Counted from the first letter of the stretch, positions 41,132 through 64,000 are shown. The stretch is DNA of 64,000 nt from Candidatus Zixiibacteriota bacterium (GCA_046542255.1 JBKHBT010000004.1:13442-77441), one strand, 5' to 3'. The notes: generated from the sequence alone by a model not told the origin. Program-made: numbers and translations.

Positions 41132-44100
41132 ATGGGAAACAGGCTAGTAATAGCTGTTTTGTTAGGGCTTCTGCTTTTTTCTGCCGTATCATTCGGTCAG
41201 GATTGGCAGTACGCTAACGTTTTTAATCTCGTAGAGGAGGGCTATGGACCGTGGATTCCAAGTTGGTATACCACGAGTTACGGACGTGTAGATTCCTACA
41301 CACCGAGTACCCCTAGTCTGCGAACTGCCACAATGCGTACAGCAGATGGCAGAGATGAACGACCTGTTCCTTTGAACCATGATCAGACAGTATTGCGTTT
41401 TGATCTTCTTAGCTCGACTGACGATTTCTTCCTTAAGGGTGTTACAGTCACTCTTATTGGAAGTCCGGATTTCGATCCTAATGAAGATTTGGCACCAATA
41501 CATCCTGATACTGCAAAAACTCTTTTCTGTGTTGATGACACAGTAAAGAGTTTTTATACAGGATTCCAGTTCTATGTAGAAAAAGGTGAACTGGCTGGTT
41601 CAAACGTTGATAGTCTCGATACAGTAGATATCGAAGACATGCCGACACCATTACAGTTTATCGATGATACTCTGATGGCCGGCACACCGCCTACAGAAAG
41701 AATATATCCAGCAGCACAAAGCTGGGAAGATGTTACCGGTACATTTGCTGGTACCTATCCAGCAGGCTGGAAAGTCTGGCAGGCACAAATTAACTTCAGA
41801 AGACACATTGAGATCAGGAATGAAGCTGATATCGATCCTGCTTATGGATTACCATTCCTTAGAATGTGGGTTTTGATGAAACCCATAGGCTGCCACGAAT
41901 GTATTCCGAGCAGCAATGATGGTGGATTCATAGAGGGTCTTTCAAATCGGGACTCATTCTATGTTCAAATTCATGAAACAAATGATCTTCATGTATACGA
42001 TGTTCTCGGCGTTGATGATGCATCTGGTTTAGAGATCATCAGAGATGTTGAGCTTCCAATTGGAAGAACTGAAGTACGATGGGATACACCAGATCCTGAT
42101 CCAGCAGATGCATCTCGTTGGGCATCATCTGGAATGCTTATTGGTGGAGATACAATTCCGCCATTCATTACAGACCTAATTCCACGTAATGAAAACCCGA
42201 CTAATGGCGATGAAACCGATCAAGGTGGACTCACCGGTTGTGATGAGATTGGCGATGAGATCTGGACTGCAGACTCTACGCAGCCAATTTCCTTCGTAGC
42301 TTATGACAAATCGACATGTATCGATTCAGTATTTGTCGAGTTAAGGCATATTAATGACGGCATCCCGACTTATTTCCCAAGAAGAGTCGACTCTATATAC
42401 TTCCGCAGTCAGCTTGCATCATCTGCCGATATTGAAAACGGCGGAGCAGGCCAGCCATGGGAAGTTAGTGTCAGGCCTTATGGTGGCTCATGGTCCCCAT
42501 GGGAAGAAGTTTTTGATGTTGCCAGCGAATTCGAAGTAGTGCAATCAGGCATGTGTGCAGATGGCTATTGTGGTCATGATACTTTCTTTATCGATGTTGG
42601 AAGAGATATTGACAATCATTATCTTCCTCCGTTTATCGATGGTGCACATATCGAGGTAACTGTCAGAGCATTCAATAGAAACTACAATGTTGGTAGCTCC
42701 TGGGCACATAGTGAGCCTTATGCTTATGATGCCTATCAGGATACCACCTGGGATTTCTATGTAGATCTTTCTGGCCCGAATGCTGAGCTTGTTTGTCCGG
42801 GTACATCCGATGACAATCTCACCGAAGAATTCTACGGTGGCGCAGCAGGCTGGAGACAGGATTATATCGAAGGCGAGAATATCGACTGGAGATGGATATC
42901 CGATAGTTTACCATTAGTTCAAGTACATTTATATGATGACTATGAAAATGTCCATGACGAAACAAATCATGGTGATGCTTTCCCATATTGGACAGGAGCA
43001 GAAGGCGGATGTGGAATCAATGAAAGAGATTTCGAATTTGCTTTCGTCGTTAATCGTCTAGTATGTGATGACATTAGTCATTCTTATATAACAGATACCT
43101 TTGTCGTTGACCAGACCGATTTGAACCAGGGTTGCTGGTTTGATGAGCATGTCAATGGCGAAGAAGGTCATATGTGGATAAATTTCGAAGATCTCGAAAC
43201 ATATAGGACCGACCTCACCGGCACAATGCTCGATGGAGATCCAATTCTTCCATTTAGAAGCGGTGACGTTCTTGAAATCCACCAGACAGAGCTATTTGAT
43301 GATCCCGACTATGGTCAGGGAACATTCAGATATGATGTTTATGGTTGGTTCCATACAGGCCCAGCCGACTTAGAAGTTGGCGGAAGCTATGGAATTGCAG
43401 AAGCACCAGATCCAAACTATGGTGTACAGAATAGAAGAGAAGTACAGGGCGATAGGCATATTCCTGTCGATGACCAAGCTGCTGCTATTTATGGCGTAAC
43501 AGCTAGAAGAGATACCCTTGGTATCCTAAGAATCGACCTCGAAGGCCCGGTTGCTCCAGATACATTCTTCTACCCACCGCATGGTTGGGTTACTTCTGAT
43601 ACGCTTCAGGTAATCACAGTCGATCTTTATGATCAAATTGGTTGCCCTTTAATCGATCAGAATCTTTCTGATGAAACAGACCATATACTTGACCAGTATG
43701 TTTCTGGTATTTATGGCGCAAGCTCCGATGAAAACTCCAGACTCGCAATTAACCTGGTGGTTAAGAGCGCATCTGGCGATCACCATCCAGAATATGTCGA
43801 ATTCCCGGGAAGGCCTTGGGAAGGACGTACATGGTATGTTCCTGGTTGGACAACAAATTGCTTGAGTCAGCCACATCATATCGAGAAGATTAATGAACGC
43901 TGGGGAACAAGGCTAACGTTTGCTCCGAGACAGCATGCGCCTTTCCGCAGTGGTGATAAGGTCTGTGTTACAGTTTATGCATGGGACAATGCAGTTACAG
44001 ACTGTGACTACGACACTATGTTTACTACAGACTTAACATGCGCAGACGGATCAACCTGGCATACAGTTGAGAACTGGATTCCAGGCCGCAACTGGGCTGA

Positions 44101-47100
44101 TGACGATTGGACTACCGACCCACTAGAGAGGACTCATGACGAAGTCGCGAGATTCTGCTTCTATGTCGATATTACTCCACCGAAATTAGTCGATAGCAAG
44201 ATTTATCCGCTTTGCGATGATACAATGACCTTCACCATCCGCGATACATCCGAAGTTATCAGCACAACATTCTGCGATGAATGGATTGCTGGTATCGGCG
44301 CAGCCGACCTTCGTATGTGGGTTTATGATGATGAAGATACAATGCCAGGCATCCATGACGATTTCTTATTCTTCAATGACTTAGTACCGGCCGTTCCGAC
44401 TGGTGCTGTCCAGGTAGACACGACTCACAATATTGTTGGCCGTGAAAATCGTTATATGTATGCCCGTATGGACTTTGGTGCCGATCCTGCACGTGAAGGA
44501 ATCATCAAAGTATGGAAAGATTGTAATGCTAACTCCTGCCACGTACTCGAGCCAGATGACAGCGTAGTCGTTGAGATCTGGGCCGGCGATAATCCGAATG
44601 TACCTTGGTATGCAGCAACTCAGAGACCTGAGTCCGAAGCTGGTTATCATGCAAGGAATACACATTCCACAGCGCCGACACAGTACTGGTGGTGGCATTA
44701 TTATGTACCTGGATTCCCGATCTCTGCAGGAGACGAATACTGGATTCCATGTCCAGCAACTTCCTGGAGACGCGGAAACCACGCTTATACCGACCTCGAC
44801 CACACAGAAGATGGCCTTGGCTGGGAAAACCATGTTTACTACAACTGGGAAAACCCGAACTGGGATAAGATTCACCAGGAAGAGTTTATTGTCCAGTCCG
44901 AAGTATGGTTAAAACAGGTACAGTGGTTTAATGACAGTGCCTGGATGAAATATCGTTCTGCATTGCAGTACAATTATCCTCCAGACCTTCATGGTAAATA
45001 TACCACATTATGGGCAATTCCTGACACAACAGAAGCAGCAGACTTCTATAGTGAGATGGAATCCATGGATCCATATCTTGGAACCTATGCACGTGATCTT
45101 CAGTTCATCGAAGCTGAAATCTATACATGCACAGACAGCATCATCTGGGAAGCTTTCTGGGAGAGCACGCCTCATGACGATACAATCACCTGGAGAACCC
45201 CGAGAGTCGAACTTAAGCTCTGGGATTCCGAAGGCGAACTCGTATGGGAATACGTCCACCATGAAGACTATGACTTCATAGGCGGCGAACATTGCGATCC
45301 TTGCTTCCTCGAATACGAAGCCACAAGAGACTGCTGCAAAGACGGCGGAATCATGAGAATCGGACCTATCGAGATGATTCATCCGTGGCTTGAAGAAGTT
45401 CGCCAGGACTCCGTACCAGAGAGTGAACTTCACCCAGACAATGAAGCCTATGTCATTACAGATGGCGAAGGCGAACCTGTCACAGATGACGAAGGCGAAA
45501 TACTTTACACAGTTTATGGTTACCAGCACGGTGACCAGCTAGAAGTAACATTCGGCTTCGCATCAAGAACACCAAATATGTTCACAGATTCTTCTGATAT
45601 TCATAATTATAATGAGTATCACTGGTTCTATGATATAGATATGCAGGCACCGACTGCAAGATTCCGCAGACTCGAAGGAACACGTGGATATGCAGAAGTT
45701 GACTGTGAAATGATGCATGTGGATAATAATGAAGTCCGCATCAGACTCGAAGACATTGCAGACGGCGATGTTGGCCTACATCCAGGCGGCACAGATGCTG
45801 ACTGGGCAAGCACCTATCCTATCCCGATACTCAAAGAAGGTACCGACCTTGTTAAGTATATGTGGGGAACAGGTGATGATGAGCCTGCAGGACTCGAATA
45901 TGCAACTTCGACACATTATATCTATCAGAATGAGTCTCACGTTGTTCAGAACTGTGCAGAGGAAGATTCACTTGCAAGAGCTTATACTTTTGCAACACCG
46001 ATCACCATGTACAGTGGCCTTGAAGACGGAGATCCTCCAACTGTTTTAGATAGAACAATCGAACAAGACAGTATCATGATTGCTGATTCGCTTTATGTCG
46101 AAGCAGTTATTCAGGACCGTCTTGGTAATGAACAATATCTCAGGTCCAATAATCTTGGACTCGACAATGGCTTACCAGAAGTCAAGGGCTTTGCCTTTGC
46201 ATCCTTCGATCCTGAACTCGATGAGTTCAATAACTGGGATGAAGACTTTGCACTCTTACCATGGGAAGTCCCTGATCAGGAATCGCTCGTAGGTGTTTAT
46301 AACTTCGGCGAAGTCTGCACAGTATTTGTCAGAATATGGTTCAATGACAATATGGACATGCGTCTTGCAGATACACATACCGGCCATATCGTTAGATTCC
46401 AGCCAGATGGTTGGACTCACTGGTTCCCGGTAATTCCGATAGACACAGAACTACATCCTTCTCTCGGAATGTATCCGCTTGCACAGAGATATGTTGATTA
46501 TGCTTATGGCGATGACTATGGTGCTGGCACACTTCTCAGATCTGTTGATGGAGAAGATGGTGAGATCACCGAAGCTGGCGAAGCTGAAATGCTCGACAAT
46601 GGTTGGAACTCCGACCGCGAGTGGATTGGTTATATGGTTATTGCTGGCGATGACATGATGGATGGTATTGGCAAAATCAGAGTCCAAGGCTTTGATGACA
46701 ATGCTGGTAACACCATGCTCGCACGTGACTTCAACTTCAGAATTGAATCTCAGTATATCGATCCTTGCATGATCTGGCCAGACATGGACAGACTCGACAC
46801 CGAGCCTATCGATCCATGGACAGGCGAAACAGATGATGAGCTTGTTGTAACAGGTTATGATATAGGTGATTACTTCTGCAGCTATGAGCCGCATGAAGAT
46901 TGCTATCCTATCGTTTCCGACTGCTTCGATCGTACAATCACCGACAGTGTCGTATTCGAATTCTGGTGGGATGATTCTATGATGACCGTAGAAGACATGT
47001 ACGAGAGAATCGATACTATTGAAATAGATCCCGATTCAACAGTACATGATACAGTTTGGGTCGATGCCGACTTCCATCATGAAATTGATGATATGCGATC

Positions 47101-50100
47101 AGAAGATATCTGGACAGAAGATGGCGAAGAATGGTATGCCCAGACAACATGCGATGTTCTCGACATTCTCCACGAATGGTATGAGGACGGCGTTATGCAT
47201 GATGGCCGCTTCGACAAGTACGTGACCATCCGCTTCAGAGTCTATTCAAGATTCTATCCGGAAGAGTATGTTGAGTCTTACACATGGAACCTCCGTGTAG
47301 ATAATGAAAAGACCTATCCAGATCTCACAGAAATCGGCGGCGGAGAATTGCCACCGGGAACTGCAATGCACGTAATTCCTGCAGTTACTGAAGAGATCAA
47401 GATTTGTATCACCTCTGATGAGATTGATCAGATCGACTATATCAACTTCACATTGACAGACATGGTAACAGATGTCGTTTATGGAATCACCGATACCATT
47501 GGTGACCCAGAAGATTCATTCCTCCAGGTCGGCGATGCTTCCTATGAAGCAACCTACGATCCTGAAGATGATGTAATCTGCTATACATGGGAAACTCCAG
47601 AAGGCCTTACACCTGGCCTATGGAAGTTCTGTGCTGAAGGTTATGATGAGATCCATATCGTAACCGATGAAGAAGACGGCGAAATAACAGGATATAATAC
47701 CTATATGCATACATTCTGCTTCTGCCGCGACAGCATCCTTGTACCGAATGAAGCATTCCTTGCAAGGGGCGACCACTATGAAGACGCTATCGCAACAATC
47801 TGCGAGAACTATCCTGCAGAACCAAATTGCGACAGCATCTATCCATGGGATATCGAGAATATCTATCCAGATTGGCCAGCATGGTCACATATAGATGGCT
47901 CGATTATTGAAGGCTACGACCATGTCAACAGATTCCAGATTACCACTTTCAATAATCCTGATTGGACAGAATCTGATGTTCTAATGAGAGATTATGTTGA
48001 AACCGGTGGATATCCTGGAGACTCTGTCTTTGTCATGTTCAGAGCTGGAGATGCACTTTGGGTCGATATGCATATTGAAGACGAGTACGGTGGAAATATC
48101 TCAGGCTCCAACCTCGAGATTATTCATCCGCTCGATTCTACCGATATCAGAGACTACATGGGTGCAGACTACTATGTCTATCCATGGGTAATAGACGATC
48201 AGGAAAACCGCTATGACGGCCCTGTCCGTGTTACATTCACAACATACAGAGAAAACTTCGCAGGCGATACAATCGCAACAGATCATGTTACATTCGTATA
48301 CCTGGATACTTATGATCCAGAATACAAAGTTAGCATGACAAGAATGGATGAAAGTCCATTACGTAGCTGTGTTAGCGATGAATATCCGCTCGAAGAAGCT
48401 ATCTGGTGTACAAACGATGATACAGTCTTTATTAAAATCGATTGGTATCAGACAGTATTTGACCAGACAGAAGATGTTTCTGGCTATACTGCCTACGATG
48501 AAGAATTCAATAGCCGTGTTTGGGAACATCTCAGACTATCTATTGATGGCCAGCCACACATGGGCTTCCATGTCGATGATCCTAATGACCTTCTCCAGTC
48601 CAGACTCTGGCAGAGAGATATCATAGGGCCAGTCGATGGTTATATCCCATTCTGGCTCTCACCGATCGATGATGGACCAATGCCTTGGGATGACTTTGGC
48701 GACGATAACTATGAATATCGTTGGCATGTCTCCGATGACCTTCGCGGTCAGGGTATCGCAGACATCTTAGTCAAGGGTCGCGATGCTGCAGGTAATATCC
48801 TTACATATGAAGAAGCAAGAATATCTAATTCATACGGTAAGAAAGTTCTTATCGATGTTGAAGATCCTACAATCGATCCGGAATTGGTCCACCTCACCGC
48901 CGAAGAGATGGAAGCCGATCCGGAAGCATTCGATGACAACTACCTTGGCGAAGGATTTGAAGACCCTGTATCCGGTGGATATGTATTCATCGAGATCTGG
49001 GACCTTGACGAGACAGTCATGCTCGGAGACGATATCTGGGTTAATGATGATGGCTCTGTCGATCCTGCCATTGTAGACCTTATTTCCGGCGATTCAGTTC
49101 TCGTATGCGCAGTTGACTTAGCTGGCAACCGCACCTGCGAGCCTGTTGAAGTAATGCCACATGTTGAGTGCTGCTCATATCATCTCTATCCTGGATTCAA
49201 TATGGTCGGTATCTCCGTCCATCCAGAAGACTCAACCGACCTTCTCGTCGAAAATGTCTTCCCAGGACTCGATGTTTACACACTCGACGGTGGTGTATAT
49301 AATGAAGTACCTGACGGCACATACCTCAACCACAGCGAGGGATACCTTGTTATGGCTGAAGTCGAGACAGACATTGTCCTTTGCGGCGATCCTGTCGAGT
49401 CATTCGAAGCCACAGGACTTCTCCCGGGCTGGAACCTTATTGGTGGTCCGTGGACAACAGTTAGAACAGTTGACGCTGGCGTCGATCCAGCCGATGCTAT
49501 CGACCTCGAAGCAGTCAATGTATATGATGGTGAAACCGGTTCTTATGTACCGACCACCGAATTTGCACACTGCCGTGGCCATCTCGTAATGGTCAGAACA
49601 ACTGATACAGCAACAGTTACTATCCCAGATGATACTCCAGGAGCAAAATATGTCTATACAGGCAAAGAAGCTTCTGAGCTCTGGAATGGTATAATCGATG
49701 TCAAATATGACGATGCAATGCGCAGCCTCACCTTTGGTGTTGCAAGCGGTGCAACCGATGGTATCGATGCTAATGACGTTGCTCTCTTCCCAACACTTCC
49801 AGGCGAAACAGATGCTTATCTCGATAATCATCTCGCCAAGAGTGTGGTAGCCAATGACTATCAGATCGAATGGGACCTCGTTCTACATCAGGATGCAGCT
49901 ATCTCACCGAATGTCGCTGGCGTACCAGAAAATTGGGAAATCACTATCGATGGTATCAATCTCAGAGATGTTGAGAACCTCGACCTCGAAGCAGGAACCT
50001 ATAAGATTTCTGCCAATGTCGCCGAGATTCCAACAAACTTCGAGCTTGCTCAGAATTCCCCGAACCCATTCAACCCGATCACATCGATCAATTACTCGGT

Positions 50101-50311: not shown

Positions 50312-50325
50312 CGATACATCTGGTT

Positions 50326-50355
50326 TTGGGCTCTCCCTTCAATGGGAGGGCCCAA
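50326..50355 (+). terminator. GC-rich hairpin after cargo gene A (terminator-like, no adjacent U-tract)
   Basis: Stem TTGGGCTCTCCC, loop TTCAAT, stem GGGAGGGCCCAA (12 bp with one G-U). T-rich stretch only ~25 nt downstream. Confidence 0.3.
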
Positions 50356-50498
50356 ACCTCTAAGGGAGGTTTAATTGATTTTTATTGAAAACGGTGGTCA
50401 GGCAAGGCAGACAGGCTAACCCGAAAGGGGGAGACAGGAAAAAATGTTATCGATTTGTAAACGAGAAAAAAAAGAACTTATAAAAGGAGGAGACCAAT

Positions 50499-53400: not shown

Positions 53401-55229
53401 TATATGTCGAATTCGATTATGTTGCTCCTTCACTAAGAGTATATGGAACAGTTAGCTTAGATGGCGAACTGACCGAAGGTGTCGATATCTATAGATGCGG
53501 TGAAGATACACCGATTGCAACTTCCGATTCACTCGGAAACTACGAAATCATCGATGTAGAAGTCGGGCCACATTGCCTCGTAGCTCGCTACCCAGGTTAT
53601 GATGACCATGAAGAGAGCTTCTATGTTACCGATAATACCGAAATTGATTTCAACCTTATTCCTGGTGACATCACAATCAGCGGAACAGTCTCAAATGACT
53701 GTAGCGAAGATGTAGCAGGTCTGACTGTTGAAATTTCCGGCCCAGCACCATCTGTCTATCTCGGACCCGATGGTTCCTATGAATTTGAAGGACTCGACTG
53801 GGGCGAATATACAATTTCAGTTATCGGCGAATATCATGCAATGACCGAAACAACAGTTACCACAGAAGGTGATATGGTAGTCGATATTACTGCTCCATGT
53901 CTCCCATGTGTTACAAGTTTCACAGTTGTTGCAGCAGAGCTTGAGCGTCCGCTCGAAGGTGATGAAGAACTTAACAATACAATCACCTGGGCAGCTCCTG
54001 TAACAGATGTTCCAGTAGATCATTATGAACTCTATCGAAATGGAACAATGTATGCAGCAGATATTCCATCTGATACAGAAGAATATATCGATACAGATGT
54101 CGATGCTGATGCAAGATATGACTATTACTTAGTAGTAATCTATGATGTAGAAGGCGAATACAATTACAGCATGGATTGTGCTTCAGGTTCCGGAACACCA
54201 ACCATGACTCCTGATATGAATGCAATTCTTATCATAGACTATGATGGTGAAGCAACACCACTCAGCGATGGCACAGTCGCTACTGAAGTTGCTATGGAGA
54301 ACCTGCTTCTTAGCCCATCGTTAGCTATGGAAGATGTCGGTATCACAATCACCGATCAGAATCCTCCAGACCTCAATGGTTATGAACTTGCCGACTATGA
54401 CTTCGTTATTGTCGAGCTTGGTATCAGAGATTCTGATGATGACCTTATGACTGATGATGTTTGTGAGGACCTCAATGCATATGCAGATATGGATAGGCCA
54501 GGCGGAACAGCTATTTTAGTCGAAGGCCCTGACTTTGGTATGAACTATGGTTCTGCCAGTGGCGTTCAGAGAGACTTCTTCAATAAATTTGGTATCAGCC
54601 ATAGTGCAAGCCACGATGGAAGTGATGAGACCGAAGGTAATGTCGACTCATTATTCATCTCCAGGTCATTTGCACATTTCGAGCCATATGGTACATATGC
54701 TTATCGAACAGAAGCCGACAGATTTGTTGACGACTTCACAGCAGAAACAGCAATTCCATTTGTATATGGAAATGATATGCTCGTTCGTGCAACAGAGAAA
54801 GTTGTCGATGGCAATAATTATAGATTTGCTTCTGCAATCTATACGGCTGCTGTCTCAGGAAGCTATGGCTCAACAGAAATGGCTCATAGAATTATTGGCC
54901 ATTATTTGAACCGTGTAGGCATAGCTAATGAAGCTATCACAGAAGTCGAAGTTACAAAGGCACCTGAATCATTCGAGATTAGCAGAGTCTATCCGAATCC
55001 ATTCAACCCGGCAACAACGATTGAGTTCGATGTTTCTGAAGATGCCAATGTAACTCTCGAAGTTTACGATGTTACCGGTAATCTGGTAAGAACTCTCGTA
55101 GAACAGCACATGACAACCGGCAAATACAATGTTGACTTTAATGCCAGTGGACTGGCATCTGGAACATACTTTGTCAAACTGGATGTTAATGGCAAGACAG
55201 TTACAAATAAACTGATGTTCATGAAATAA
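50499..55229 (+). CDS. giant (1576-aa) acidic T9SS cargo protein B of a modular paralog family
   Basis: Signal peptide ending IFA, then QDW. Three copies of a novel ~140-aa module (cores at 50682-50756, 51825-51899, 52587-52667). Ig-like Big_5/SbsA-type domains. Four carboxypeptidase-regulatory-like domains. FN3-like domain. Alpha/beta module (LIIDYDG ... FVIVELG ... ILVEGPDFG). T9SS CTD (YPNPFNPATTIEFDV ... GTYFVKLDVNGKTVTNKLMFMK). RBS AAGGAGGAG. Confidence 0.9.
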   Translation: MRKVGLSRGLKVLFILLIFSGVIFAQDWALPLNLVSGDGVDTITVTLGVHYTATDLFDEGLDMAFPMAPPPPVRYAYFPIEDPEYPGINMLGTDFRDPVSEHEWVIVLDRDYTSTEREVFWDMEDLPFPDSLEDLLLAEELMIGAAYPSEEVPDTAWVDMSEVESFNFSAGKVVHVKFMPEGSIDMHPPTVTAFYPEDGADGVRRVRPIEFNIQDDITGVDESSITLLINDVEVPHDDFIVMDPILNGFHIEYLPEDDWPEMEDICAKIIAADLADPVHVMDTFESCFSTPSEPPDTFPPYYEDLSIEDGDTLNIWESVFIKLLDTERGVDESSITVTVNGVEYTNFELSLFTEFLYDYNIEIMPPASGWNPGEYYEVVVHGCDRADEPNCVDTTFTFVAGGIEPPPFEYSMYAYSIEGTDTTRNMLSIGTDPDATEGYDSGYDIASPSPDFTTFGYFPLSDPTYPYVNKLSKDVKRTAQSVTWQIEFNNPDDVVGIAWDIDELEEIIDTIGSIRIGYGNRDSLRWRDMLLYDHIDFAPEHNCYIRYTTVTTDTAAPRVWGRDPYPAEVDVPLSTNIQFDLLDPESGVDPSSIVLRFGTIGGSLTTVDPEDYTLEMLPTGYRVVYDRPGMLNYNTTYVVRVTASDEAPSANSATHEWQFTTTTTCAPMFESPLSLTDGEDDISLVIGTDDDALVGRDDMDVPIPVAPPSGFFAYFPIEDDPIYDMLSTDIRPNCAGEQVWEIIKDRADGPVTISWDTEDIFFDEEWQLRVAAAAIGEEPEHADYETIMTEVDEFTFAAGENAFIKLGIWDTTESYCINGSVSLWGSDSTTIVNVSVAPIGVTYDSPPGGGPFEVCHLPNDTEYTLVLSAEGYVPETLSVYISGEDYIIADPIELRPPGTFVHGTVMVEGEDAPGISILLGEDATVTRADGSWAIDNVLPDVDMICYSGFGLGYPDTCEEIDVTGEDTVYVEFDYVAPSLRVYGTVSLDGELTEGVDIYRCGEDTPIATSDSLGNYEIIDVEVGPHCLVARYPGYDDHEESFYVTDNTEIDFNLIPGDITISGTVSNDCSEDVAGLTVEISGPAPSVYLGPDGSYEFEGLDWGEYTISVIGEYHAMTETTVTTEGDMVVDITAPCLPCVTSFTVVAAELERPLEGDEELNNTITWAAPVTDVPVDHYELYRNGTMYAADIPSDTEEYIDTDVDADARYDYYLVVIYDVEGEYNYSMDCASGSGTPTMTPDMNAILIIDYDGEATPLSDGTVATEVAMENLLLSPSLAMEDVGITITDQNPPDLNGYELADYDFVIVELGIRDSDDDLMTDDVCEDLNAYADMDRPGGTAILVEGPDFGMNYGSASGVQRDFFNKFGISHSASHDGSDETEGNVDSLFISRSFAHFEPYGTYAYRTEADRFVDDFTAETAIPFVYGNDMLVRATEKVVDGNNYRFASAIYTAAVSGSYGSTEMAHRIIGHYLNRVGIANEAITEVEVTKAPESFEISRVYPNPFNPATTIEFDVSEDANVTLEVYDVTGNLVRTLVEQHMTTGKYNVDFNASGLASGTYFVKLDVNGKTVTNKLMFMK

Positions 55230-55252
55230 TATCAGTTAAATATACATTTAGA

Positions 55253-55284
55253 AGCCCTCCTCTTAGCAGGAGGGCTTTTTTTTT
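55253..55284 (+). terminator. rho-independent terminator after cargo gene B
   Basis: Stem AGCCCTCCT, loop CTTAGC, stem AGGAGGGCT, followed by 9 T. Confidence 0.8.
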
Positions 55285-55513
55285 GACAAAATACAGAAGA
55301 ATATGAAAAAAAGACTTGCAATAATCATAAAAATGCCTATAAATTAAGCATATGCAGTTGAATATCTGTAGTTAATTCTTATGTGCATCATAGAGAAGTA
55401 AGTAAATAAAGGATTTGGAACGATAAAATTATTGATATGAAAAATAAATTGATATTTGATAAAAAAGGATATATATTACATAAAAATAAACTCTTAATAT
55501 GGAGGGCAGATAG

Positions 55514-58500
55514 ATGATTAGGAAATTAACTTTCTTATCTGTGATTATCTTAGCATTATGTGTTTATGCTCAAGATTGGACTATGCCACTTATGATTTAT
55601 AGCGGTGATATGGCCGATACTGTTACAGTATCCTTTGGCATCGATTACCGTGCAAGTGATAACCATGACACTGGAATCGACCTGGCATTTCCAGTTGCTC
55701 CGCCTTCTGGAATGTATGCCTATTTTCCAGTGTCAGACCCGGACCATCCCGGCATAGACATGCTTGCATCCGATATACGAAGCTCGTATTCGGAATTCGA
55801 AGAATGGGAGCTTCACATAGAACGTGATATGTCTTCAGGAACCAGAATTGTGGTATGGAATGAAGAAGATTTGCCCATAGAAGAAAGTCTCCTTCTCGCA
55901 TGGGCGGATGAGCTTCTTATTGGAAGCGCATATCCCGGCGACTCAGTTGAAGAATGGACAAGTATGCTTTCGGCTTCAATGATTGAACCATTGGCAGGCG
56001 AAATTGTTTGGATTAGAGCAACTATGTCACCAGAATACAATATGCCGCCAGAGATAACTGAATTTATTCCCTATGAAGATGCCGTTGAGATCGGAGTGGA
56101 CGAGCCTATCGAATTCACGATTGTCGATGATACTCTCGATGTCGAGATTACAAGCCTTACTATAATCGTAAATGGCGATTTGGTCGAATACGAAGATTTC
56201 GAATATAGCCCTGTTCTCCATGGATATGAAGTTTCGTATATTCCTGATGAGGGATGGGAACCGGCTACAGAATATTGCATAGATATTGTCGCACAGGATA
56301 TTGCAAGCCCTCCTGCTATTATGGATACTTTTCATAGATGTTTCACCACAGAAGATATGTATCCGGATACATTGGCACCGTATTATCAGAGAGCATCTAT
56401 CGAAGATGGTGCAGAAAATGTCTTTGTCTATCAGCATTTGAATCTCGAAATCCGAGACTTAGAAGCCGGTGTCGATAATGGTTCTATCGATGTTTATGTT
56501 AATGATGAAAGATATACCAATATTATAATTGCCAATATTCCCGGGCATGCACATGATTATAATCTCGATGTGATTCCGCCAGAATATGGTTGGGAACTTT
56601 GCACGCCATACGAGATAACAATCGAAGCATGTGATTTATCCAGCGATATAAATTGCTCGACACATTCCATATCGTTTACAACAACCTGCGACCCAATGGG
56701 AGAATGGACATATCGACTAAAGACCTGGATCGTCAATGATGATGATACATTGCATAATTTTCTTACTATCGGCACAAATTCCGAAGCTACAGAAATGTAT
56801 GACCACGGAATCGATGTCCCCATTACAATGCCCGAGTTTGCAAGCTATGGCTATCTTCCTATCGATGACCCGGAATATCCTATGTATAGAAGACTACAAA
56901 ACGATATTAGAAGAAATGCTGAAAGGATAACCTGGCAAATTAACTATCACAACCCAATCGACAATTGCGGTATCGATTGGAATGTAAGTGAATTATATGA
57001 TCTCGAAGACATTCTCGGCGGCGAATTCAAGATTGGCTATGGAACCGATACGCGACATATTTCATGGTTCGATATGACCCATACAAATCGGCTTACATTC
57101 GACCCGGGCGAAATTGTCCTTATCAAATATGAATATGGAAGCACAGATACCCTGCCACCTGAATTCACCAATATTAGTCCAGAACCTTCTGAACTGGAAC
57201 TGGGAATGCCGGAAATTACCGATTTTTCAGTTGATATTGTCGATGCCGAAAGCGGCGTGGATGCATCGAGTATTGCGATGTATATCAATGATGAGATGGT
57301 CGAGCCGGAATATCTTGCGATGTCGCTTCTTTCTCGTGGTTTCAGAGTAACATATACGCCGCCCGAACCACTCGGTTACGAAGTTTACGATTTCAGAGTA
57401 GAGGCCTGCGACAATAATCGCCCGGCCGGAAATTGTGGCGAATATGAATGGACTTATGACCTTATTCCATGCCTTCCAGAATTTGGCCTTGATTTCCAGG
57501 TATTCGATATAAATACCCATGGCGATACATTGTCGAATGCAACACTGCGTATTGGGATCGATGAGGATGCCCTTGTCGGCCGCGATGATTTCGATTCTCC
57601 GACATTCAGGCCACCAACGGGGACTTTCTTTTATATGCCAATCGATGATGAAGCCTATGATTACCTCGGCGCTGATTTCCGTCCTGCTTGCGATAGCGCA
57701 CAGATATGGCATATCATTAACCAGGGTGTTACGGGCGGAAGAATGCGTATTTCATGGGATCGTGATGAAGTTTTCGAAGACGATAGATGGGAATTAGGTA
57801 TAGTAGCTGGCCCTATTGGCGGCGATGTACCAGAAGATGAAGAATTCATTAGCATGTCGAGTAATGATTACTTTACCTATGCTGCTTCACAGACCGTCTA
57901 TATCAAAACTCTACCTTATATTCCACCGACTTTCTGTCTGACAGGCTCTGTAAGTTTCTGTGCCGATTCGACAACACGGCCAACACTCTATATATCCGAG
58001 CTTGGATATGAAGAGATATTACCTGACGGTGGGGGAGATTTCGAGATATGTAATCTACACAATGGCATCTACGAGGTCATTATCGCTGCTGAAGGATATG
58101 ATTCTGCTACATATATCATTGAGATCGATGGTGATGACTATGCTATGGAAGGCCATCAGTTCTGCAATCGGGTCAATCTAAATGGTAGCCTGAGTTTGGA
58201 TGACGAAGTTATGCCTTATGCGCCTGTTTCATTGGATGGCATAGTTGACACAACAAATGTCGATGGAGAATTCGCTTTCGAAAACATGATTCCTGGAACA
58301 TATGAGATCTGCTTCTCTGCCCTTGGGGTTTGCTATCCAGACACATGTTTCGATATTGTAATAGATTCGGATATGGAATTAGATTTTAACTATGAAAGCC
58401 CATCTTTGAATATTACAGGGCATATTGAATACGATAGCATCCCGGCAGAAGGCGCTATGATATATCTTTGCGATAGCCCCGGAATTGTTGTCGCTGAAAC

Positions 58501-60160
58501 CGATGAATTCGGAAACTATCTCATAGAGGAGATAGCATGTGGTACACAGTGTTTCGAAATCCATTATGAAGATTTCCCAGTGCTGGATACATCGCTGTTC
58601 GTTCATACTGACACTATTGTCGATATCGAATATTTCGGAGATTACAATTACGATATTTCAGGAAGTATCACATTGGACTGCGGATATACGCCATTCGGAA
58701 CTATTATCGAAATTGGCGATGAGTCGGCTGTGGCTGATTCATTCGGTGATTTCGAATTTGAAGATATTCCAATGGGTGAATATGAAATGCAGATAACTCG
58801 TGAATATGCAGCAACGATAGATACAATAATAAACCTTGAAAGCGATACTTCACTGGCATTTATGATGCAATGCCTTCCAGAAGTAGCAGATATCGATGTC
58901 GAAGGTTTCGATATCGAAAGGCCATATGAATCCGGCGAATTCAATATCCATGTATCATGGGAAGCTCCTATAACAGATGTCGAGATAGAGAGCTATAATA
59001 TTTATCGTTCAGAAAGCTACTTTGCAAGGCCAGAGGACGGCACTCTGATAGCCACGCTCGATTCTGTAATCGATTTCTACGATAGGGATATATCTCCTGA
59101 TGTGAGTTATTTCTACGGGATCGAAGTTACATATGCTGTCGAACCATATAATGGTAAATTCTCAGATGTGGAGCACGATATGTCAACGGTTTCACCTGAC
59201 CCCAATGAATTATTGATAATCGACTTCGATGATGGCGCTACGCCAATCGATGGTTCTGGCGCAGAAGCTGCTATGCTGGATCTTATGGAATCACCGGCAC
59301 TCGGCTATGATGGCGGTATAACTATTACATCGCAGAATCCCGAGAACCTCGATGGCTATATGCTGGATGATTATGATATCGTATTCGTCGAACTTGGCAT
59401 CGATGATGACGATAATCCTTTGATGCCTGTCTCGATTGTCGATCAGCTTCTTGATTTCATAGATGGTAGCGGTTTGATTTACGTTGAAGGGCCGGATTTT
59501 GGCAAGCTATATCGAGAAGCTGGCGGCGACTATGAAGAATTCTTCCGCGCATTTGGCATCGGTTGGGCAGCTTCTTCAGATGGTTACGATGAAGGTATTG
59601 GCAATGTCGAATCGATTATTGGCTTCGAATCCTTCTTTGGCGATGAAATATCAGCATCTTATGCTACGCATACTCCTGCCGACCGCTCTGTCGATGAGCT
59701 TAGGCCTATGGAAGCATCCGAAATCATAACATCACAGAATGATTCCAAAACAAGGACTACATACTATCAGGACGGCGGAATGCAGCTTATAGCATCTTCG
59801 ATATACCTGACCGCTGTTCAGGGAAGAGCCACGCAGGCACAGATCATGGGTAGATATCTTGGAATCGATAATATTCAGGAGAATGAGATCGCAGTACCTG
59901 AAGATATAACAGTTGACATTGCGCCAAATCCCTTCAATCCGATTACCAGCATTAATGTCAAATTGGCAAATACTGCCGAGACAGTTTTGGAGATCTATGA
60001 TATCAATGGAAAGAAGATCACTACCATATTTGAAGGCAAATTACCAGCAGGAAACCATATCTTTGACTTCGATGGCAGAGAACTTTCCTCAGGTATCTAT
60101 TTTGCCAATGTCAAAACAAATGAAGATATTATATCCATGAGAATGATACTTATCAAATAG
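55514..60160 (+). CDS. giant (1548-aa) acidic T9SS cargo protein C, paralog of B
   Basis: Signal peptide ending VYA, then QDW. Same domain order as B. Module cores at 55679-55750, 56807-56887, 57587-57664. Alpha/beta module LLIIDFDDG ... IVFVELG ... LIYVEGPDFG. CTD APNPFNPITSINVKL ... SGIYFANVKTNEDIISMRMILIK. Confidence 0.9.
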   Translation: MIRKLTFLSVIILALCVYAQDWTMPLMIYSGDMADTVTVSFGIDYRASDNHDTGIDLAFPVAPPSGMYAYFPVSDPDHPGIDMLASDIRSSYSEFEEWELHIERDMSSGTRIVVWNEEDLPIEESLLLAWADELLIGSAYPGDSVEEWTSMLSASMIEPLAGEIVWIRATMSPEYNMPPEITEFIPYEDAVEIGVDEPIEFTIVDDTLDVEITSLTIIVNGDLVEYEDFEYSPVLHGYEVSYIPDEGWEPATEYCIDIVAQDIASPPAIMDTFHRCFTTEDMYPDTLAPYYQRASIEDGAENVFVYQHLNLEIRDLEAGVDNGSIDVYVNDERYTNIIIANIPGHAHDYNLDVIPPEYGWELCTPYEITIEACDLSSDINCSTHSISFTTTCDPMGEWTYRLKTWIVNDDDTLHNFLTIGTNSEATEMYDHGIDVPITMPEFASYGYLPIDDPEYPMYRRLQNDIRRNAERITWQINYHNPIDNCGIDWNVSELYDLEDILGGEFKIGYGTDTRHISWFDMTHTNRLTFDPGEIVLIKYEYGSTDTLPPEFTNISPEPSELELGMPEITDFSVDIVDAESGVDASSIAMYINDEMVEPEYLAMSLLSRGFRVTYTPPEPLGYEVYDFRVEACDNNRPAGNCGEYEWTYDLIPCLPEFGLDFQVFDINTHGDTLSNATLRIGIDEDALVGRDDFDSPTFRPPTGTFFYMPIDDEAYDYLGADFRPACDSAQIWHIINQGVTGGRMRISWDRDEVFEDDRWELGIVAGPIGGDVPEDEEFISMSSNDYFTYAASQTVYIKTLPYIPPTFCLTGSVSFCADSTTRPTLYISELGYEEILPDGGGDFEICNLHNGIYEVIIAAEGYDSATYIIEIDGDDYAMEGHQFCNRVNLNGSLSLDDEVMPYAPVSLDGIVDTTNVDGEFAFENMIPGTYEICFSALGVCYPDTCFDIVIDSDMELDFNYESPSLNITGHIEYDSIPAEGAMIYLCDSPGIVVAETDEFGNYLIEEIACGTQCFEIHYEDFPVLDTSLFVHTDTIVDIEYFGDYNYDISGSITLDCGYTPFGTIIEIGDESAVADSFGDFEFEDIPMGEYEMQITREYAATIDTIINLESDTSLAFMMQCLPEVADIDVEGFDIERPYESGEFNIHVSWEAPITDVEIESYNIYRSESYFARPEDGTLIATLDSVIDFYDRDISPDVSYFYGIEVTYAVEPYNGKFSDVEHDMSTVSPDPNELLIIDFDDGATPIDGSGAEAAMLDLMESPALGYDGGITITSQNPENLDGYMLDDYDIVFVELGIDDDDNPLMPVSIVDQLLDFIDGSGLIYVEGPDFGKLYREAGGDYEEFFRAFGIGWAASSDGYDEGIGNVESIIGFESFFGDEISASYATHTPADRSVDELRPMEASEIITSQNDSKTRTTYYQDGGMQLIASSIYLTAVQGRATQAQIMGRYLGIDNIQENEIAVPEDITVDIAPNPFNPITSINVKLANTAETVLEIYDINGKKITTIFEGKLPAGNHIFDFDGRELSSGIYFANVKTNEDIISMRMILIK

Positions 60161-60188
60161 CAAAGAATCTTCAAAGAAATCATAAAAA

Positions 60189-60220
60189 GGGTTGCTCTAA
60201 TTGCGAGTAGCCCTTTTTTT
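60189..60220 (+). terminator. rho-independent terminator after cargo gene C
   Basis: Stem GGGTTGCTC, loop TAATTGC, stem GAGTAGCCC (with G-U pairs), then T7. TATAAT-like element at 60224-60229 immediately downstream. Confidence 0.6.
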
Positions 60221-60280
60221 GTATATAATGGCTCTATTGCCATCAAAAAAGAAATTCAATTTATTGCTCTGGAGGGCAAA

Positions 60281-63200
60281 ATGATAAAGAAGTTTGGTTT
60301 GATATTAATTATTCTATTTTCCATCTCACTATTTGGACAGGCATGGGATTTTGATCTTAGGGTCATAAATGAGAGCGGTGAAGAAGCCGACACCACATGG
60401 GAAGTTACACTGGGTACAGATTTTGGTGCAAGCGATGGCTATGATGATGGCATCGATGTTCTTCTTCCTGTTGCGCCTCCGGGAGAGCCATTCATATATT
60501 TCCCACTGGATGACCCAGATTATCCACTTATGACAATGCTTACAGCCGACATACGCTCAACCAGCGAAACATCCTTTGAGTGGAAAATTTCAACTGGAAA
60601 TATTTATTCAGGAAGCAATAGGGCAGAATGGAGCGAGAGAGATTTTCCATTCGATGAGACATCCAGTGCTACGATGCAAATAGGCGGAGCATATCCGGGT
60701 ACAGAGCCTTCATCATGGCAGGATATGTCAAGAACCACCAGCTTCGATTATTCTCTGGGGGAGGTTATCTGGGTAGTGGTCGAGATGGACCCTTCGATCG
60801 ATACACAACCGCCCGAAGTTATATCGACATTTCCCTCTGATGGCGTCACTGGAGTCGATACTATGACGACTACCAGAATCGAACTTATCGACTCAGATTC
60901 CGGGCCGGATAGCACTTCGATACAGATTACATACGAAGGCTCGATTATTCCGCATACTGACCTTGTGATCGATAGAATCGCATCTGGCTATGAGATACGA
61001 TACTTGCCCACAGATGGTTGGCCGGCAGGGGATACAGTCTGCATCGATGTCGATGCTCAGGATAATGCGACACCGCCAAATGTGATGTCAACATACACAT
61101 ACTGTTTTGAGACAAGCGAACCATTCGACCCATCGAGATATCCGCCATATTTCACAGATTTTTCCATTTCGGATGGCGATACTGGAATCGTTGTCTCAGA
61201 GGAAATCACATTTAAGATAAGAGATACTCATGAAGGCGTAGATTCCTCGACAATCGAGATTTTATTTGGCATGTCTCCTTTCGATTTTTACGAGGTCGAA
61301 TCCACTTCCGGCGGCGATTTCGATTATGAAGTAACCCTATTCCCACCGCCGGGTGGCTGGACAGTTGGCAATACATATGATGTAGAGGTTTCGGCATGTG
61401 ATCTCTACAGCCCTGCTAATTGTTCAGATACCACATTTTCTTTCACTGTCGAATCATCTGCTTCGATAACGCCATTTGAACTTCCGATGACCTTCTGGAC
61501 TTCCATGGGTGCAAGCGATACAAGCTATTCAAATATTACAATAAAAACATCGCCACTGGCAACAGATGGCTTTGATCCTGGAATCGATGCTGCATGTGCA
61601 AGCCCGGGTTTCGCTTCTTTCGGATATTTTCCGCTCGATGATCCTGAAGCTCCGATGTATGACAAACTTTCGACTGATGCAAGATTCAATGGCGAAGATA
61701 TTCAATGGGAAGTCGAGAAAAATAGGCCCGATACATATAATGGCATCCGCTGGAGTAGCTCTGATATCGAAGATATCATAGTTTCTACAATGGGCCTTCT
61801 CAGAATCGGCTATGGCCCGGATGAGATGTCTCTGTTCTGGGTCGATATGAGCGAAGAAACCGAAATTGAATTTGACCCGGACGATCTTGTCTTTATAAGA
61901 TTTACAATGGATACCAGTGCTTCTTCCGAACCGATTGTACGGAATATACTGCCCGAAGACGGCGATTCAAATGTATCTATCGATGAATGCATAAGTTTCG
62001 AAGTGATAGATGCCGATGATGGTATCGATTCATTCCACTTATTTCTTGGCATCGAAGGCGGTTCGATGATCGAGATTGCTCCATCGGATATGGATATAAC
62101 GGTAATAAGCGGTGGGTATCATGTGGAATATTGTCCTGATGAGCCATTCGAATATAGCTCGATTTACAATATTCGAGTAGAAGCTAATGATTTTTCCGAT
62201 AATGAAACAATTCGTGAATGGTCTTTCTCGACACAGGTATGGTGCCTCGGTACACCATTTACTACCATGCTCACGCTCTACGATTTCGACAGCGATACCA
62301 CAATCGACAATCTATTTTTCGGAATTGGCGAAGCATCGACAGATAGCATCGACCCTACCGATGTTACACTGCCGCTTCTTCCGCCCGGCGTATCTTTCTA
62401 TTTCCCATGCGAAGCCACAATGGTCGATGCATTCACAACAGACATGCGCTCGATGTGCCCGGAAACAACAATCGTTTGGCAGGTACTCGTCAATTTAGGA
62501 GGAGGCGATTATCGCTGCGAATGGGATCCATCCGAAATAGTCGGCGAAGGCGACTGGAAACTTGCTATCGCAAAGAGTCCCGTTTTCGAAGATCGTCCGG
62601 TTATAGATTCTTTCACTGCAATGACTGAGATAGACCATATCGATTATGAAGATGGTGAAAAGCTATGGATTATCTATACCCCAGAGCATCTTTCGACCGA
62701 ACCGCCGACATACTGCATTTCAGGCAGCGTTGGTTTCTGTGATGATGATGATTTAACCACCGAAGCGACTGTGAATATTCTCGAAATAGCATCGGCTATC
62801 GTTACCGACCCCGGCGGTGGAGATTTCGAGGTATGCGATCTCGATACAGGCTCATATACTCTGGTTTTCACTGCTGAAAGCTATGAATCTGAGACGCTTA
62901 TGGTCGAGCTTATCGATGAGGATGTTTCGCTCGAGCCGATCGAGCTTTGGTCGCCTTCCTGCGAGCCGCTTTCTATTGTCCGTGGAAATGTTAGCTGGGA
63001 AGAAGAGCCAGTAGAAAGCATCACTGTTACATTGGGTTGGGCTTTTGAAACCACCGATGAAGAAGGCTATTATGAATTTGCCGGCATGATTGCAGGCGAT
63101 TACGAAATTTGCTTCAATAGCTTCCCAGCAGAATGCTATAGCGATACATGCTTTGATATATCGATTCCTGAAGGTGGAGATACCATTACAGTCGATTTTG

Positions 63201-64000
63201 ACTACTCGCTCCCGACAATCGACATTACTGGCAACGTGATGCTCGATGGCGAAGCCTTTTCTGATGTCGATATTTATTTCTGCGACTCTTCAGAAGCCAT
63301 CGCTACAACAGACGATATTGGCGAATTCGATGTCACTGGCCTTATGCCTGGAACATATTGCATCGAAATATCTCCAGAAGGATATGAAACAATAAGCCGG
63401 ACAATTTCATCCTGCTCAGATACTTCGATAAGCTTTGAATATTTCACCGATATGGTTACAGCCATAATAGACATTTCCACCGATTGCGGAATGGATGACA
63501 GCATCTTTGTCGAGATTAATGGCGATTTATATTATGGCTCGCATCATGAAATTTCAGTTTCTGCCGGTGATTCATTATTTATTGAAGCCTATGGCGAGAA
63601 TCTTACCGCTATCGATACACTTTTCGCTTCGGTTGGAGAAGACATATCAATAGAACTGGATCTGTATTGTATCCTTTGCGTAGATCGCTTGATTGCAGAA
63701 GGCGTATCTTTGACAAGGCCGCTTATTGATGAAACGATCGCCAATACCTTGAGCTGGGATGCACCTTCGACAGAGCTTGAAATAATTGGTTATATCATAA
63801 ATCGAGATGGCGAAGCAATAGATACGATTTCTGGCACGGAATATATAGATGTAGATATCGAGAGCGATTTGGAATACGAGTATTCGCTGGATATTCTCTA
63901 TGAAGATGGCTATGCAAGATATGATTGTGTTTTAGAGACTGCTATGTCGGTCGTAGCACCTGACCCTAATAGGATACTTATTATTGATTATGACGATGGT
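60281..64000 (+). CDS. giant T9SS-cargo paralog D (5' complete, runs off window end)
   Basis: Not in the ORF track (no in-window stop). RBS GGAGGG plus the ATG at 60281. Signal peptide MIKKFGLILIILFSISLFG, then QAW. Module cores at 60449-60533, 61580-61663, 62360-62452. Carboxypeptidase-regulatory-like and FN3-like domains. Alpha/beta module begins (RILIIDYDDG) at the window end. Confidence 0.85.
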   Translation, partial: MIKKFGLILIILFSISLFGQAWDFDLRVINESGEEADTTWEVTLGTDFGASDGYDDGIDVLLPVAPPGEPFIYFPLDDPDYPLMTMLTADIRSTSETSFEWKISTGNIYSGSNRAEWSERDFPFDETSSATMQIGGAYPGTEPSSWQDMSRTTSFDYSLGEVIWVVVEMDPSIDTQPPEVISTFPSDGVTGVDTMTTTRIELIDSDSGPDSTSIQITYEGSIIPHTDLVIDRIASGYEIRYLPTDGWPAGDTVCIDVDAQDNATPPNVMSTYTYCFETSEPFDPSRYPPYFTDFSISDGDTGIVVSEEITFKIRDTHEGVDSSTIEILFGMSPFDFYEVESTSGGDFDYEVTLFPPPGGWTVGNTYDVEVSACDLYSPANCSDTTFSFTVESSASITPFELPMTFWTSMGASDTSYSNITIKTSPLATDGFDPGIDAACASPGFASFGYFPLDDPEAPMYDKLSTDARFNGEDIQWEVEKNRPDTYNGIRWSSSDIEDIIVSTMGLLRIGYGPDEMSLFWVDMSEETEIEFDPDDLVFIRFTMDTSASSEPIVRNILPEDGDSNVSIDECISFEVIDADDGIDSFHLFLGIEGGSMIEIAPSDMDITVISGGYHVEYCPDEPFEYSSIYNIRVEANDFSDNETIREWSFSTQVWCLGTPFTTMLTLYDFDSDTTIDNLFFGIGEASTDSIDPTDVTLPLLPPGVSFYFPCEATMVDAFTTDMRSMCPETTIVWQVLVNLGGGDYRCEWDPSEIVGEGDWKLAIAKSPVFEDRPVIDSFTAMTEIDHIDYEDGEKLWIIYTPEHLSTEPPTYCISGSVGFCDDDDLTTEATVNILEIASAIVTDPGGGDFEVCDLDTGSYTLVFTAESYESETLMVELIDEDVSLEPIELWSPSCEPLSIVRGNVSWEEEPVESITVTLGWAFETTDEEGYYEFAGMIAGDYEICFNSFPAECYSDTCFDISIPEGGDTITVDFDYSLPTIDITGNVMLDGEAFSDVDIYFCDSSEAIATTDDIGEFDVTGLMPGTYCIEISPEGYETISRTISSCSDTSISFEYFTDMVTAIIDISTDCGMDDSIFVEINGDLYYGSHHEISVSAGDSLFIEAYGENLTAIDTLFASVGEDISIELDLYCILCVDRLIAEGVSLTRPLIDETIANTLSWDAPSTELEIIGYIINRDGEAIDTISGTEYIDVDIESDLEYEYSLDILYEDGYARYDCVLETAMSVVAPDPNRILIIDYDDG

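Follow-up and report, generated by a model that had tools for sequence, protein, structure and literature searches.

A gene triad for a Wzi-like outer-membrane protein and two large type IX secretion cargo proteins in Candidatus Zixiibacteriota, a candidate source of a surface coat

A stretch of 64,000 nucleotides (nt) from Candidatus Zixiibacteriota bacterium (GCA_046542255.1, JBKHBT010000004.1:13442-77441), which was analysed as a whole and is called the window here, ends in four consecutive plus-strand open reading frames for very large secreted proteins, designated A, B, C and D. The locus raises the question whether these four genes form one family and what their products do once they have left the cytoplasm. 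A sequence-only reading of the same DNA had taken them for a tandem array of four that begins at position 41132, and the four reading frames are present with the sizes it gave. The conserved unit, however, begins one gene earlier, at a gene named W, and comprises W, A and B, whose products may build a surface coat delivered by a type IX secretion system (T9SS). The genes are as follows (aa, amino acids).

39246-40760, plus strand: W, Wzi-like outer-membrane protein of 504 aa with signal peptide, first gene of the W-A-B triad
41132-50311, plus strand: A, giant, acidic, non-repetitive T9SS cargo protein of 3059 aa
50499-55229, plus strand: B, T9SS cargo protein of 1576 aa, positional ortholog of the gene after A in every genome
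55514-60160, plus strand: C, paralog of B with 1548 aa and 36% identity
60281-64000, plus strand: D, third paralog, still open at the window end at residue 1239

In BLASTP comparisons, B, C and D proved to be full-length paralogs (B-C 36%, B-D 35% and C-D 32% identity), whereas A matches them only in the last ~100 residues, i.e. in the C-terminal sorting domain (CTD), to which profile comparison adds one weak module of ~150 aa. A is thus not a paralog of the other three, and the supposed array of four resolves into one unique giant and three paralogs of a second family.

A search of 5.8 billion proteins returned the A family as 11 clusters of 2971-3387 aa that are 36-59% identical; a profile of this family, run against the same 5.8 billion proteins, found no member beyond the 11 clusters, all other matches being restricted to the CTD or the C-terminal cassette. 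In GTDB, sampled with one genome per species, 19 A loci were found (33-41% identity), all from uncultured metagenome-assembled genomes (MAGs). According to their record titles, the A-bearing MAGs stem from Guaymas, the Auka/Pescadero vent, cold seeps and Zodletone, and one is labelled UBP14. In all 25 loci with an A homolog, which include the 19 species-level genomes and a few duplicate retrievals of one contig, W, A and B follow each other in this order on the same strand as far as the flanks can be read: W was found in 23 of 23 and B in 24 of 24 loci with a readable flank. Across the loci, the W-A spacer spans 267-541 nt and the A-B spacer 82-187 nt (82-180 nt in the orthologous loci). With the gene immediately upstream of each A ortholog, W shares 25-31% identity, and the gene downstream of A orthologs always scores higher with B than with C or D. 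Since these downstream genes score best with B and most genomes hold a single B, C and D are lineage-specific extra copies of B; the window has three B-type genes, and more than one occurs in a few other loci. Judged by gene order and similarity, the real unit is shown to be the triad W-A-B, inherited together in a distinct uncultured lineage. Nothing was found on this locus in the published literature.

The only Pfam match of W is Wzi (PF14052, Caps_assemb_Wzi; 34.4 bits at a cut-off of 30.1, profile positions 63-385 of 392). NCBIfam yielded no match, and no PDB chain was matched by the W sequence or by a profile of 17 W sequences. In the precomputed annotation of W orthologs, PF14052 is a good match in loci L001 and L003 and a weak match in L005, and it is missing from L004 and L006. 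Several W orthologs have aromatic or hydrophobic residues at the C-terminus, a frequent trait of outer-membrane barrels. In group 1 capsule systems, such as those of E. coli K30 and Klebsiella, Wzi is the capsule-binding lectin. W resembles it in passing the Pfam threshold and in ending a Wza/Wzy-type polysaccharide cluster in many loci; it differs in that the match is marginal (34 bits) and weak or missing in some orthologs, and in that W keeps its place beside A and B in loci that have no polysaccharide genes close by.

The neighbours of the triad vary, with at least four contexts. Seven loci have a cluster of Wza, Wzy_C (ligase), RmlD-like and glycosyltransferase genes upstream, and in seven loci a tetratricopeptide-repeat (YfiO-like) gene, sometimes with LemA, takes this place. 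An RmlD-like gene with or without a GT4 glycosyltransferase gene is found in four loci and in the window, and three loci show none of these. Counting duplicate retrievals, an RmlD-like gene lies upstream of W in 13 other loci. In the window, the following run lies directly upstream of W-A-B.

34343-39242: lipid A/core and sugar-nucleotide run, with DUF374 acyltransferase-like, KdtA, LpxK, GT4 and RmlD genes

Because W matches Wzi, and because the triad follows KdtA, LpxK, GT4 and RmlD here and a Wza/Wzy_C cluster in seven loci, we link it to the envelope glycan.

Export signals were assessed at both ends of the proteins. TIGR04183, which describes the T9SS type-A sorting domain and has a curated cut-off of 23 bits, matches A and B as listed below and C with 37.8 bits, the CTD of the latter occupying aa 1469-1545. 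Pfam Por_Secre_tail (PF18962) passes in B and C and reaches 26.6 in A, just under its cut-off of 27. The type-B model CHU_C remained below threshold (25.8, cut-off 27). Matches to the NCBIfam models of PorU (A and B) and PorZ (B) fall on the cargo CTD, which corresponds to the C-terminal end of the model.

50060-50296, plus strand: CTD of A (aa 2977-3055; TIGR04183 33.1 bits, FlgD_ig 39.3 bits)
54987-55217, plus strand: CTD of B (aa 1497-1573; TIGR04183 47.0 bits, Por_Secre_tail 51 bits)
41198-41200 (A), 50574-50576 (B), 55571-55573 (C) and 60338-60340 (D), plus strand: Gln codon after the predicted signal peptide

The statement that all four proteins end in a type-A CTD holds for A, B and C, the C-terminus of D lying past the window end. 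Translation of D halts at ILIIDYDDG, which aligns to B 1241-1249 at the start of an alpha/beta C-domain; ~310-330 residues, the expected CTD among them, lie beyond this point. A single N-terminal hydrophobic segment and no other transmembrane-like stretch was observed in each of A-D, and by inspection these segments were judged to be Sec signal peptides that lead to an A/G-Q site. In A, the signal peptide comprises aa 1-22, followed by Gln, and Gln occupies the predicted +1 position in all four proteins (FGQ, FAQ, YAQ and FGQ), in 17 of 20 A orthologs and in 17 of 19 B orthologs. One study describes this "Q-rule" as Bacteroidetes-specific and not as a property of the whole FCB group (PMC5837995). 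By these signatures, A, B and C are shown to be type-A CTD cargo with Sec signal peptides, and the proposal of secreted T9SS cargo from a lineage-restricted family without described function is supported.

All four proteins are strongly acidic, with a pI of ~4.05, 19-20% D+E, 3-5% K+R and very little Lys, compared with 13.6% D+E and 11.5% K+R in the 20 other window genes that served as background. They had also been called extremely rich in Trp and Tyr; this applies to Trp in A only (3.2%, vs 1.2-1.8% in B-D and 1.0% in the background), and the Tyr excess is small.

The general O-glycosylation motif of Bacteroidota is D(S/T)(A/I/L/V/M/T) (PMC8550257). A carries 41 of these sequons as compared with 14.8 +/- 3.7 in composition-preserving shuffles (z = 7), and all 20 A orthologs are enriched 2-3.7-fold (z 3.5-11), where, the orthologs being non-independent, the effect size counts and the p-value does not. 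Six control tripeptides, i.e. E[ST]h, N[ST]h, G[ST]h, D[AG]h, D[ST][FYW] and D[ST][charged], with h being any of A, I, L, V, M and T, were unenriched. In the A family, D[ST] is followed by A/I/L/V/M/T in 67% of cases vs 33% for [ST] preceded by another residue; for the B family the same comparison gives 61% vs 42%. B family members hold 288 sequons where 193.5 are expected (~1.5-fold), and the 21 other window proteins hold 34 where 30.2 are expected. At 27 of the 41 sites in A, the sequon is present in under half of the orthologs, which suggests that sites turn over while their density is maintained. The enrichment fits a heavily glycosylated surface protein A; some of the conserved DS/DT-hydrophobic triplets may be structural instead.

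Outside the CTD, no Pfam domain was detected in A and its 10 full-length homologs (11 members), PDB sequence and profile searches with A and its family returned only FlgD-like matches to the CTD, and window-wise hhalign of A against itself revealed no internal repeat over ~2,850 aa. Invariant positions among 20 orthologs number 383 of 3059 and are spread over the whole length; most are D (72), G (57), P (35), N (31) or W (30), and 11 Cys and 6 His are included. In our reading of the alignment, the recurrent motifs xDxxxP and DxAGN resemble boundaries or last strands of bacterial Ig-like domains. AlphaFold2 modelling of A 24-1215 from an 11-sequence alignment gave a mostly beta and unusable model with a mean predicted local distance difference test score (pLDDT) of 43. 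A motif scan of A-D confirmed that HExxH is absent and found no CxxCH either, and A lacks a conserved GxSxG. A multihaem or metalloprotease role was rejected since CxxCH and HExxH are missing. Two elements were recognised in front of the CTD of A.

49166-49651, plus strand: double GWN(L/M)(I/V)G domain of A (residues 2679-2840), no Pfam hit
49664-50017, plus strand: shortened copy of a module designated M (A residues 2845-2962), directly before the CTD

These two GWNxxG domains and module M make up the last ~290 residues of A before the CTD. In hhalign, this stretch matches the last 297 aa of a Methanosarcinales S8 peptidase (probability 98.1%, E 1e-13); the motif L..GWN(L/M)(I/V)G.P is common to both, and in the C-terminus of the archaeal peptidase module M has the same position after the GWN domain.

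The architecture of B was derived from Pfam and window-wise hhalign. The signal peptide is followed by M, two Ig domains, M, Big_5, M, ~4-5 CarboxypepD_reg domains, an FN3-like domain, the alpha/beta C-domain and the CTD. Pfam detects Big_5 in B and D and CarboxypepD_reg (transthyretin-like) in B, C and D. The combination of Ig-like, carboxypeptidase-regulatory-like and FN3-like domains that had been ascribed to the whole array is thus confined to B-D and does not extend to A, and its FN3 part appears in the structure model only, being not significant in Pfam. B 381-1576 was modelled with AlphaFold2 at a mean pLDDT of 59, the Ig and transthyretin-like parts being confident and the rest weak. 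Foldseek comparison of this model with the PDB yielded only generic beta-sandwich arrays, its structural neighbours including SdrD, TIE, pilins, fibronectin and SlaB (8qox_B), while PDB sequence and profile searches with B and its C-domain gave only FlgD-like CTD matches.

54201-54968, plus strand: alpha/beta C-domain of B (residues 1235-1490, ~250 residues)
50568-51038, 51702-52142 and 52488-52934, plus strand: module M copies in B
55565-56026, 56687-57133 and 57467-57925, plus strand: module M copies in C
60332-60787, 61454-61906 and 62240-62704, plus strand: module M copies in D

According to the model, the C-domain of B probably adopts a ThuA/class-I glutamine-amidotransferase-like fold devoid of the Cys/His catalytic set. 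No Cys or His of this domain is invariant among 19 orthologs, which makes a catalytic amidotransferase unlikely.

Module M spans ~150 residues with the core FG..(D)..ATDG.D.G.D...P..PP....YFP..D...P....L.TDIR...W. Its copies in B-D align to each other with hhalign probabilities of 99.4-99.8%, and comparison of the A and B profiles pairs A 2847-2932 with B 24-127 at a probability of 47%. A profile built from the ten window copies and searched against 1.84 billion representative proteins matched 1135 proteins at E<=1e-3, of which 224 still match at E<=1e-10. In these proteins, module M is located right after signal peptides, in stand-alone proteins of 160-280 residues or just before a T9SS CTD, the last also in unrelated cargo such as an S8 peptidase, a glucose/sorbosone dehydrogenase and CARDB proteins. 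The PDB sequence and profile search found no relative of known structure, and no Pfam family was reported over the module, be it in the window proteins or in the seven closely scanned proteins that bear it. Identity with cohesin was considered, given that 5 of 40 module-bearing proteins match Pfam Cohesin, and was rejected; in one of them examined closely, Cohesin sits elsewhere. Module M is best viewed as a domain without a name that has an accessory or spacer role in secreted proteins.

Expression signals separate the genes as follows.

40827-40854, plus strand: sigma-70-like promoter consensus TTGACA-N16-TATAAT (12 of 12 positions), in the 371-nt spacer between W and A
50329-50372, plus strand: two GC-rich hairpins after A, no adjacent T-run, not a canonical terminator
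55250-55289, plus strand: intrinsic terminator after B with a 12-bp stem that leads into T9 (hairpin and T-run also given as 55250-55279)
60184-60228, plus strand: intrinsic terminator after C with a 14-bp stem that leads into a T-run (hairpin and T-run also given as 60184-60218)

These elements agree with what the sequence-only reading had listed, namely the promoter upstream of A, the terminators after B and C and mere T-less hairpins after A, and each gene indeed has a strong ribosome-binding site of its own (GGAGG or AAGGAG before every start codon of A-D). The promoter, the top match in a scan of 20 kb, is a match to the consensus only, and the overall number of promoter-like sites shows no enrichment (59 found, 52 expected). 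For A, the start at 41132 is favoured over an in-frame ATG at 41054, since it has AAGGAG 7 nt upstream and all ortholog N-termini align to it. The gap of 187 nt between A and B contains neither a terminator nor a promoter-like match, and these two genes look like one transcription unit. Independent transcription, asserted for each of the four genes, thus applies at best to C and D, which have a terminator upstream and promoter-like sites in their spacers. The effective number of codons (Nc) is lowest in the window for A (45.7) and B (45.1), compared with 48.0-57.7 in 20 other genes, C and D being average (51-52); this codon bias is a weak hint that A and B are a highly expressed pair.

We propose, with a rough probability of 0.45, that the triad gives rise to a T9SS-exported, glycosylated, two-component surface coat anchored to lipopolysaccharide (LPS), analogous and not homologous to the one made by Tannerella TfsA and TfsB. 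A and B would be exported via Sec and then by T9SS. In Porphyromonas, type-A cargo undergoes CTD removal and attachment to an LPS-type glycan; likewise, the CTDs of A and B would be removed and both proteins linked to an anionic glycan of LPS type at the outer membrane, where they would form the main protein coat as an S-layer-like two-component layer. In this layer, A would be the large, structurally unique and probably heavily O-glycosylated main building block, and B a beads-on-a-string stalk or linker composed of Ig-like, transthyretin-like and module M domains. W could act as a Wzi-like barrel, i.e. as a lectin-type anchor or nucleation site that ties the coat to the surface polysaccharide, and C and D may be diverged spare or variant B subunits with transcription signals of their own. 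The coat-like character is suggested by a pI of ~4, low Lys content and 19-20% D+E, by the beta-sandwich array of B and by the full-length conservation of A without repeats. Hints for expression come from the perfect -35/-10 elements before A, the strong Shine-Dalgarno sequences, the terminators after B and C and the low Nc of A and B.

Among known systems, A, B and C resemble the A-LPS-anchored cargo of Porphyromonas gingivalis (gingipains, PorU/PorV/PorZ) in their type-A CTD and in that their genes adjoin lipid A/core and O-antigen-type genes; they differ in that no protease or other known functional domain is present in A-C. The concept of a large acidic all-beta canopy on a smaller stalk recalls Sulfolobus SlaA/SlaB, and SlaB (8qox_B) is found near the B model. 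In contrast, the Sulfolobus proteins are archaeal, membrane-anchored and independent of T9SS, and the structural match is a generic beta-sandwich. In Tannerella forsythia, two large CTD proteins encoded next to each other, TfsA and TfsB, make up the S-layer, which T9SS mutants lack (PMC4175972); both proteins are heavily O-glycosylated at D(S/T)(A/I/L/V/M/T) (PMC8550257). Like these, A and B are large, adjacent and co-inherited (24 of 24 loci), possess T9SS CTDs and carry the same sequon, which is strongly enriched in A and mildly in B, their glycosylation being predicted only. Unlike TfsA/TfsB, they are ~2.5 times larger in the case of A, come with a Wzi-like barrel gene in the unit and belong to another, uncultured lineage, and no tool detected sequence similarity. 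The likeness to the Tannerella S-layer would be functional and architectural only. Compared with known large T9SS surface proteins, the invariant Wzi-like partner, the domainless stretch of 2,850 residues and the sequon enrichment outside Bacteroidota appear distinctive.

Several points weigh against a coat. Searches in Pfam, NCBIfam and the PDB revealed no sequence or fold similarity to TfsA/TfsB or any known S-layer family, only CTD and generic beta-sandwich matches, and an S-layer subunit of 3,000 residues would be exceptionally large. A has 50 Cys, 11 of them invariant, and invariant His/Asp clusters, which is unusual for S-layer proteins; clusters such as GCHxC at 253-257 and HDxxxHG at 608-614 could mark metal or active sites, further invariant H/D/C residues lie at 723-728, and with a model of pLDDT 43, A may also contain enzyme folds. 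Expression is weakly reflected by Nc. The O-glycosylation machinery that recognises this sequon is known from Bacteroidota only. Finally, the annotated window genes include no T9SS component, the rest of the genome being outside the analysis.

In a different view, A is a giant surface or extracellular enzyme or metal-binding protein that acts on capsule, exopolysaccharide or environmental polysaccharide or protein, with B as binding or scaffold partner and W as polysaccharide-binding barrel. In favour of it, A is non-repetitive and conserved throughout, with invariant Asp, His and Cys clusters. Its gene is constantly linked to a Wzi-like lectin-type protein and frequently to polysaccharide export and biosynthesis genes, module M and GWNxxG domains end real enzymes (S8 peptidases, glucose/sorbosone dehydrogenase), and B carries the modelled ThuA/GATase1-like domain. 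However, neither a catalytic domain nor a catalytic motif emerged in 11 family members from Pfam, NCBIfam and PDB sequence and profile searches, HExxH, CxxCH and a conserved GxSxG are all absent, the alpha/beta domain of B is devoid of conserved Cys or His, and the modules shared with enzymes are accessory domains before the CTD and not catalytic ones. We consider this view doubtful and keep it alive because the structure model of A failed. A role of A and B as surface adhesins for particles, minerals, cells or gliding, T9SS-exported like Flavobacterium SprB/RemA and with W as outer-membrane partner, likewise appears unlikely. SprB of Flavobacterium johnsoniae is a giant gliding adhesin with a type-B CTD, is highly repetitive and is encoded beside the PorP-like SprF. 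Here, too, giant T9SS cargo is coupled to an outer-membrane beta-barrel gene, an arrangement that recalls sprB-sprF; the cargo has beads-on-a-string beta-sandwich regions, SdrD, TIE, pilins and fibronectin are neighbours of the B model, and the host MAGs, judged by their titles, derive from Guaymas, Auka/Pescadero vent, cold-seep and Zodletone spring metagenomes. But the CTD is of type A and not SprB-like type B (CHU_C 25.8 vs 27), the barrel matches Wzi and no PorP/SprF-family neighbour is present, and A is free of repeats whereas known giant adhesins are highly repetitive. Moreover, A shows one-to-one orthology and full-length conservation among 20 species, while adhesins usually vary in copy or repeat number.

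Two further explanations concern the origin of the block. Amplification of one lineage-specific family into four equivalent, independently transcribed members would account for B, C and D, which are true tandem paralogs (32-36% identity), and for the terminators and promoter-like sites that precede C and D. It is refuted for A by BLASTP, A having in common with B-D only the CTD and one module; in addition, universal conservation and synteny are confined to A and B, B is single in most genomes, and neither terminator nor promoter separates A from B, which makes this origin very improbable for the array as a whole. Horizontal acquisition as an island was suggested by the G+C content of the block, 43-47% vs 38-41% elsewhere, which rises at 42 kb. 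However, the rise is located in codon positions 1 and 2, i.e. in amino-acid composition, G+C at third codon positions (GC3) of A-D is 0.33-0.41 and lies inside the range of other window genes (0.33-0.44), and the cassette is vertically conserved across the lineage. A foreign island was rejected on GC3, and we regard acquisition of this kind as highly improbable.

That the proposed coat is a bacterial one not described before, i.e. a T9SS-delivered, O-glycosylated two-component layer with a main subunit of 3,000 residues, ~2,850 of them in folds that lack detectable relatives, held by a dedicated Wzi-like outer-membrane lectin in a lineage at candidate-phylum level (Ca. Zixiibacteriota, with one relative labelled UBP14), is a tentative extension of the coat reading. 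If it were true, Bacteroidota-type O-glycosylation and the Gln+1 "Q-rule" would reach well past Bacteroidota, and the coat would be the major surface structure of a widespread group of uncultured bacteria of anoxic sediments, vents and seeps, forming their interface with minerals, phages and neighbours. It would also be a second, independent T9SS-built S-layer, and one in which a Wzi-type barrel is coupled to the cargo, a link undescribed for T9SS. The sequon enrichment would further predict that general protein O-glycosylation is not confined to Bacteroidota. With ~2,850 residues that lack a recognisable domain, A is a good target for structure discovery, and module M represents a common domain that is still unnamed in Pfam and often lies directly before T9SS sorting domains.

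Some minor observations were made on the right end of the window. D is absent among the representative proteins returned in the homolog search, and a 60-mer from the window end has no exact match in the metagenomes of the Joint Genome Institute. C has no entry in the assembly index, and the only other contig with B ends 40 nt short of the window end. The Logan contig L026 is identical at 5444-13888 to window positions 55514-63958. The public gene table for L026 lists one product of 2815 aa that runs through the C stop into D. This C-D fusion is an annotation artefact, as the DNA is identical and the stop is present at codon 1549.

An Rfam scan of the whole window found no RNA family. The left window end encodes a Schlafen/AlbA_2-domain protein (1668-2912, minus strand) and a GT87-family glycosyltransferase (3079-4203, minus strand). 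A type IV pilus minor-pilin set at 6973-12992 comprises genes for a GspH-like protein, an N-methyl pilin, PilW, PilX and a PilY1-like protein of 1215 aa, and is followed by genes for a sigma-54 response regulator and then a histidine kinase.

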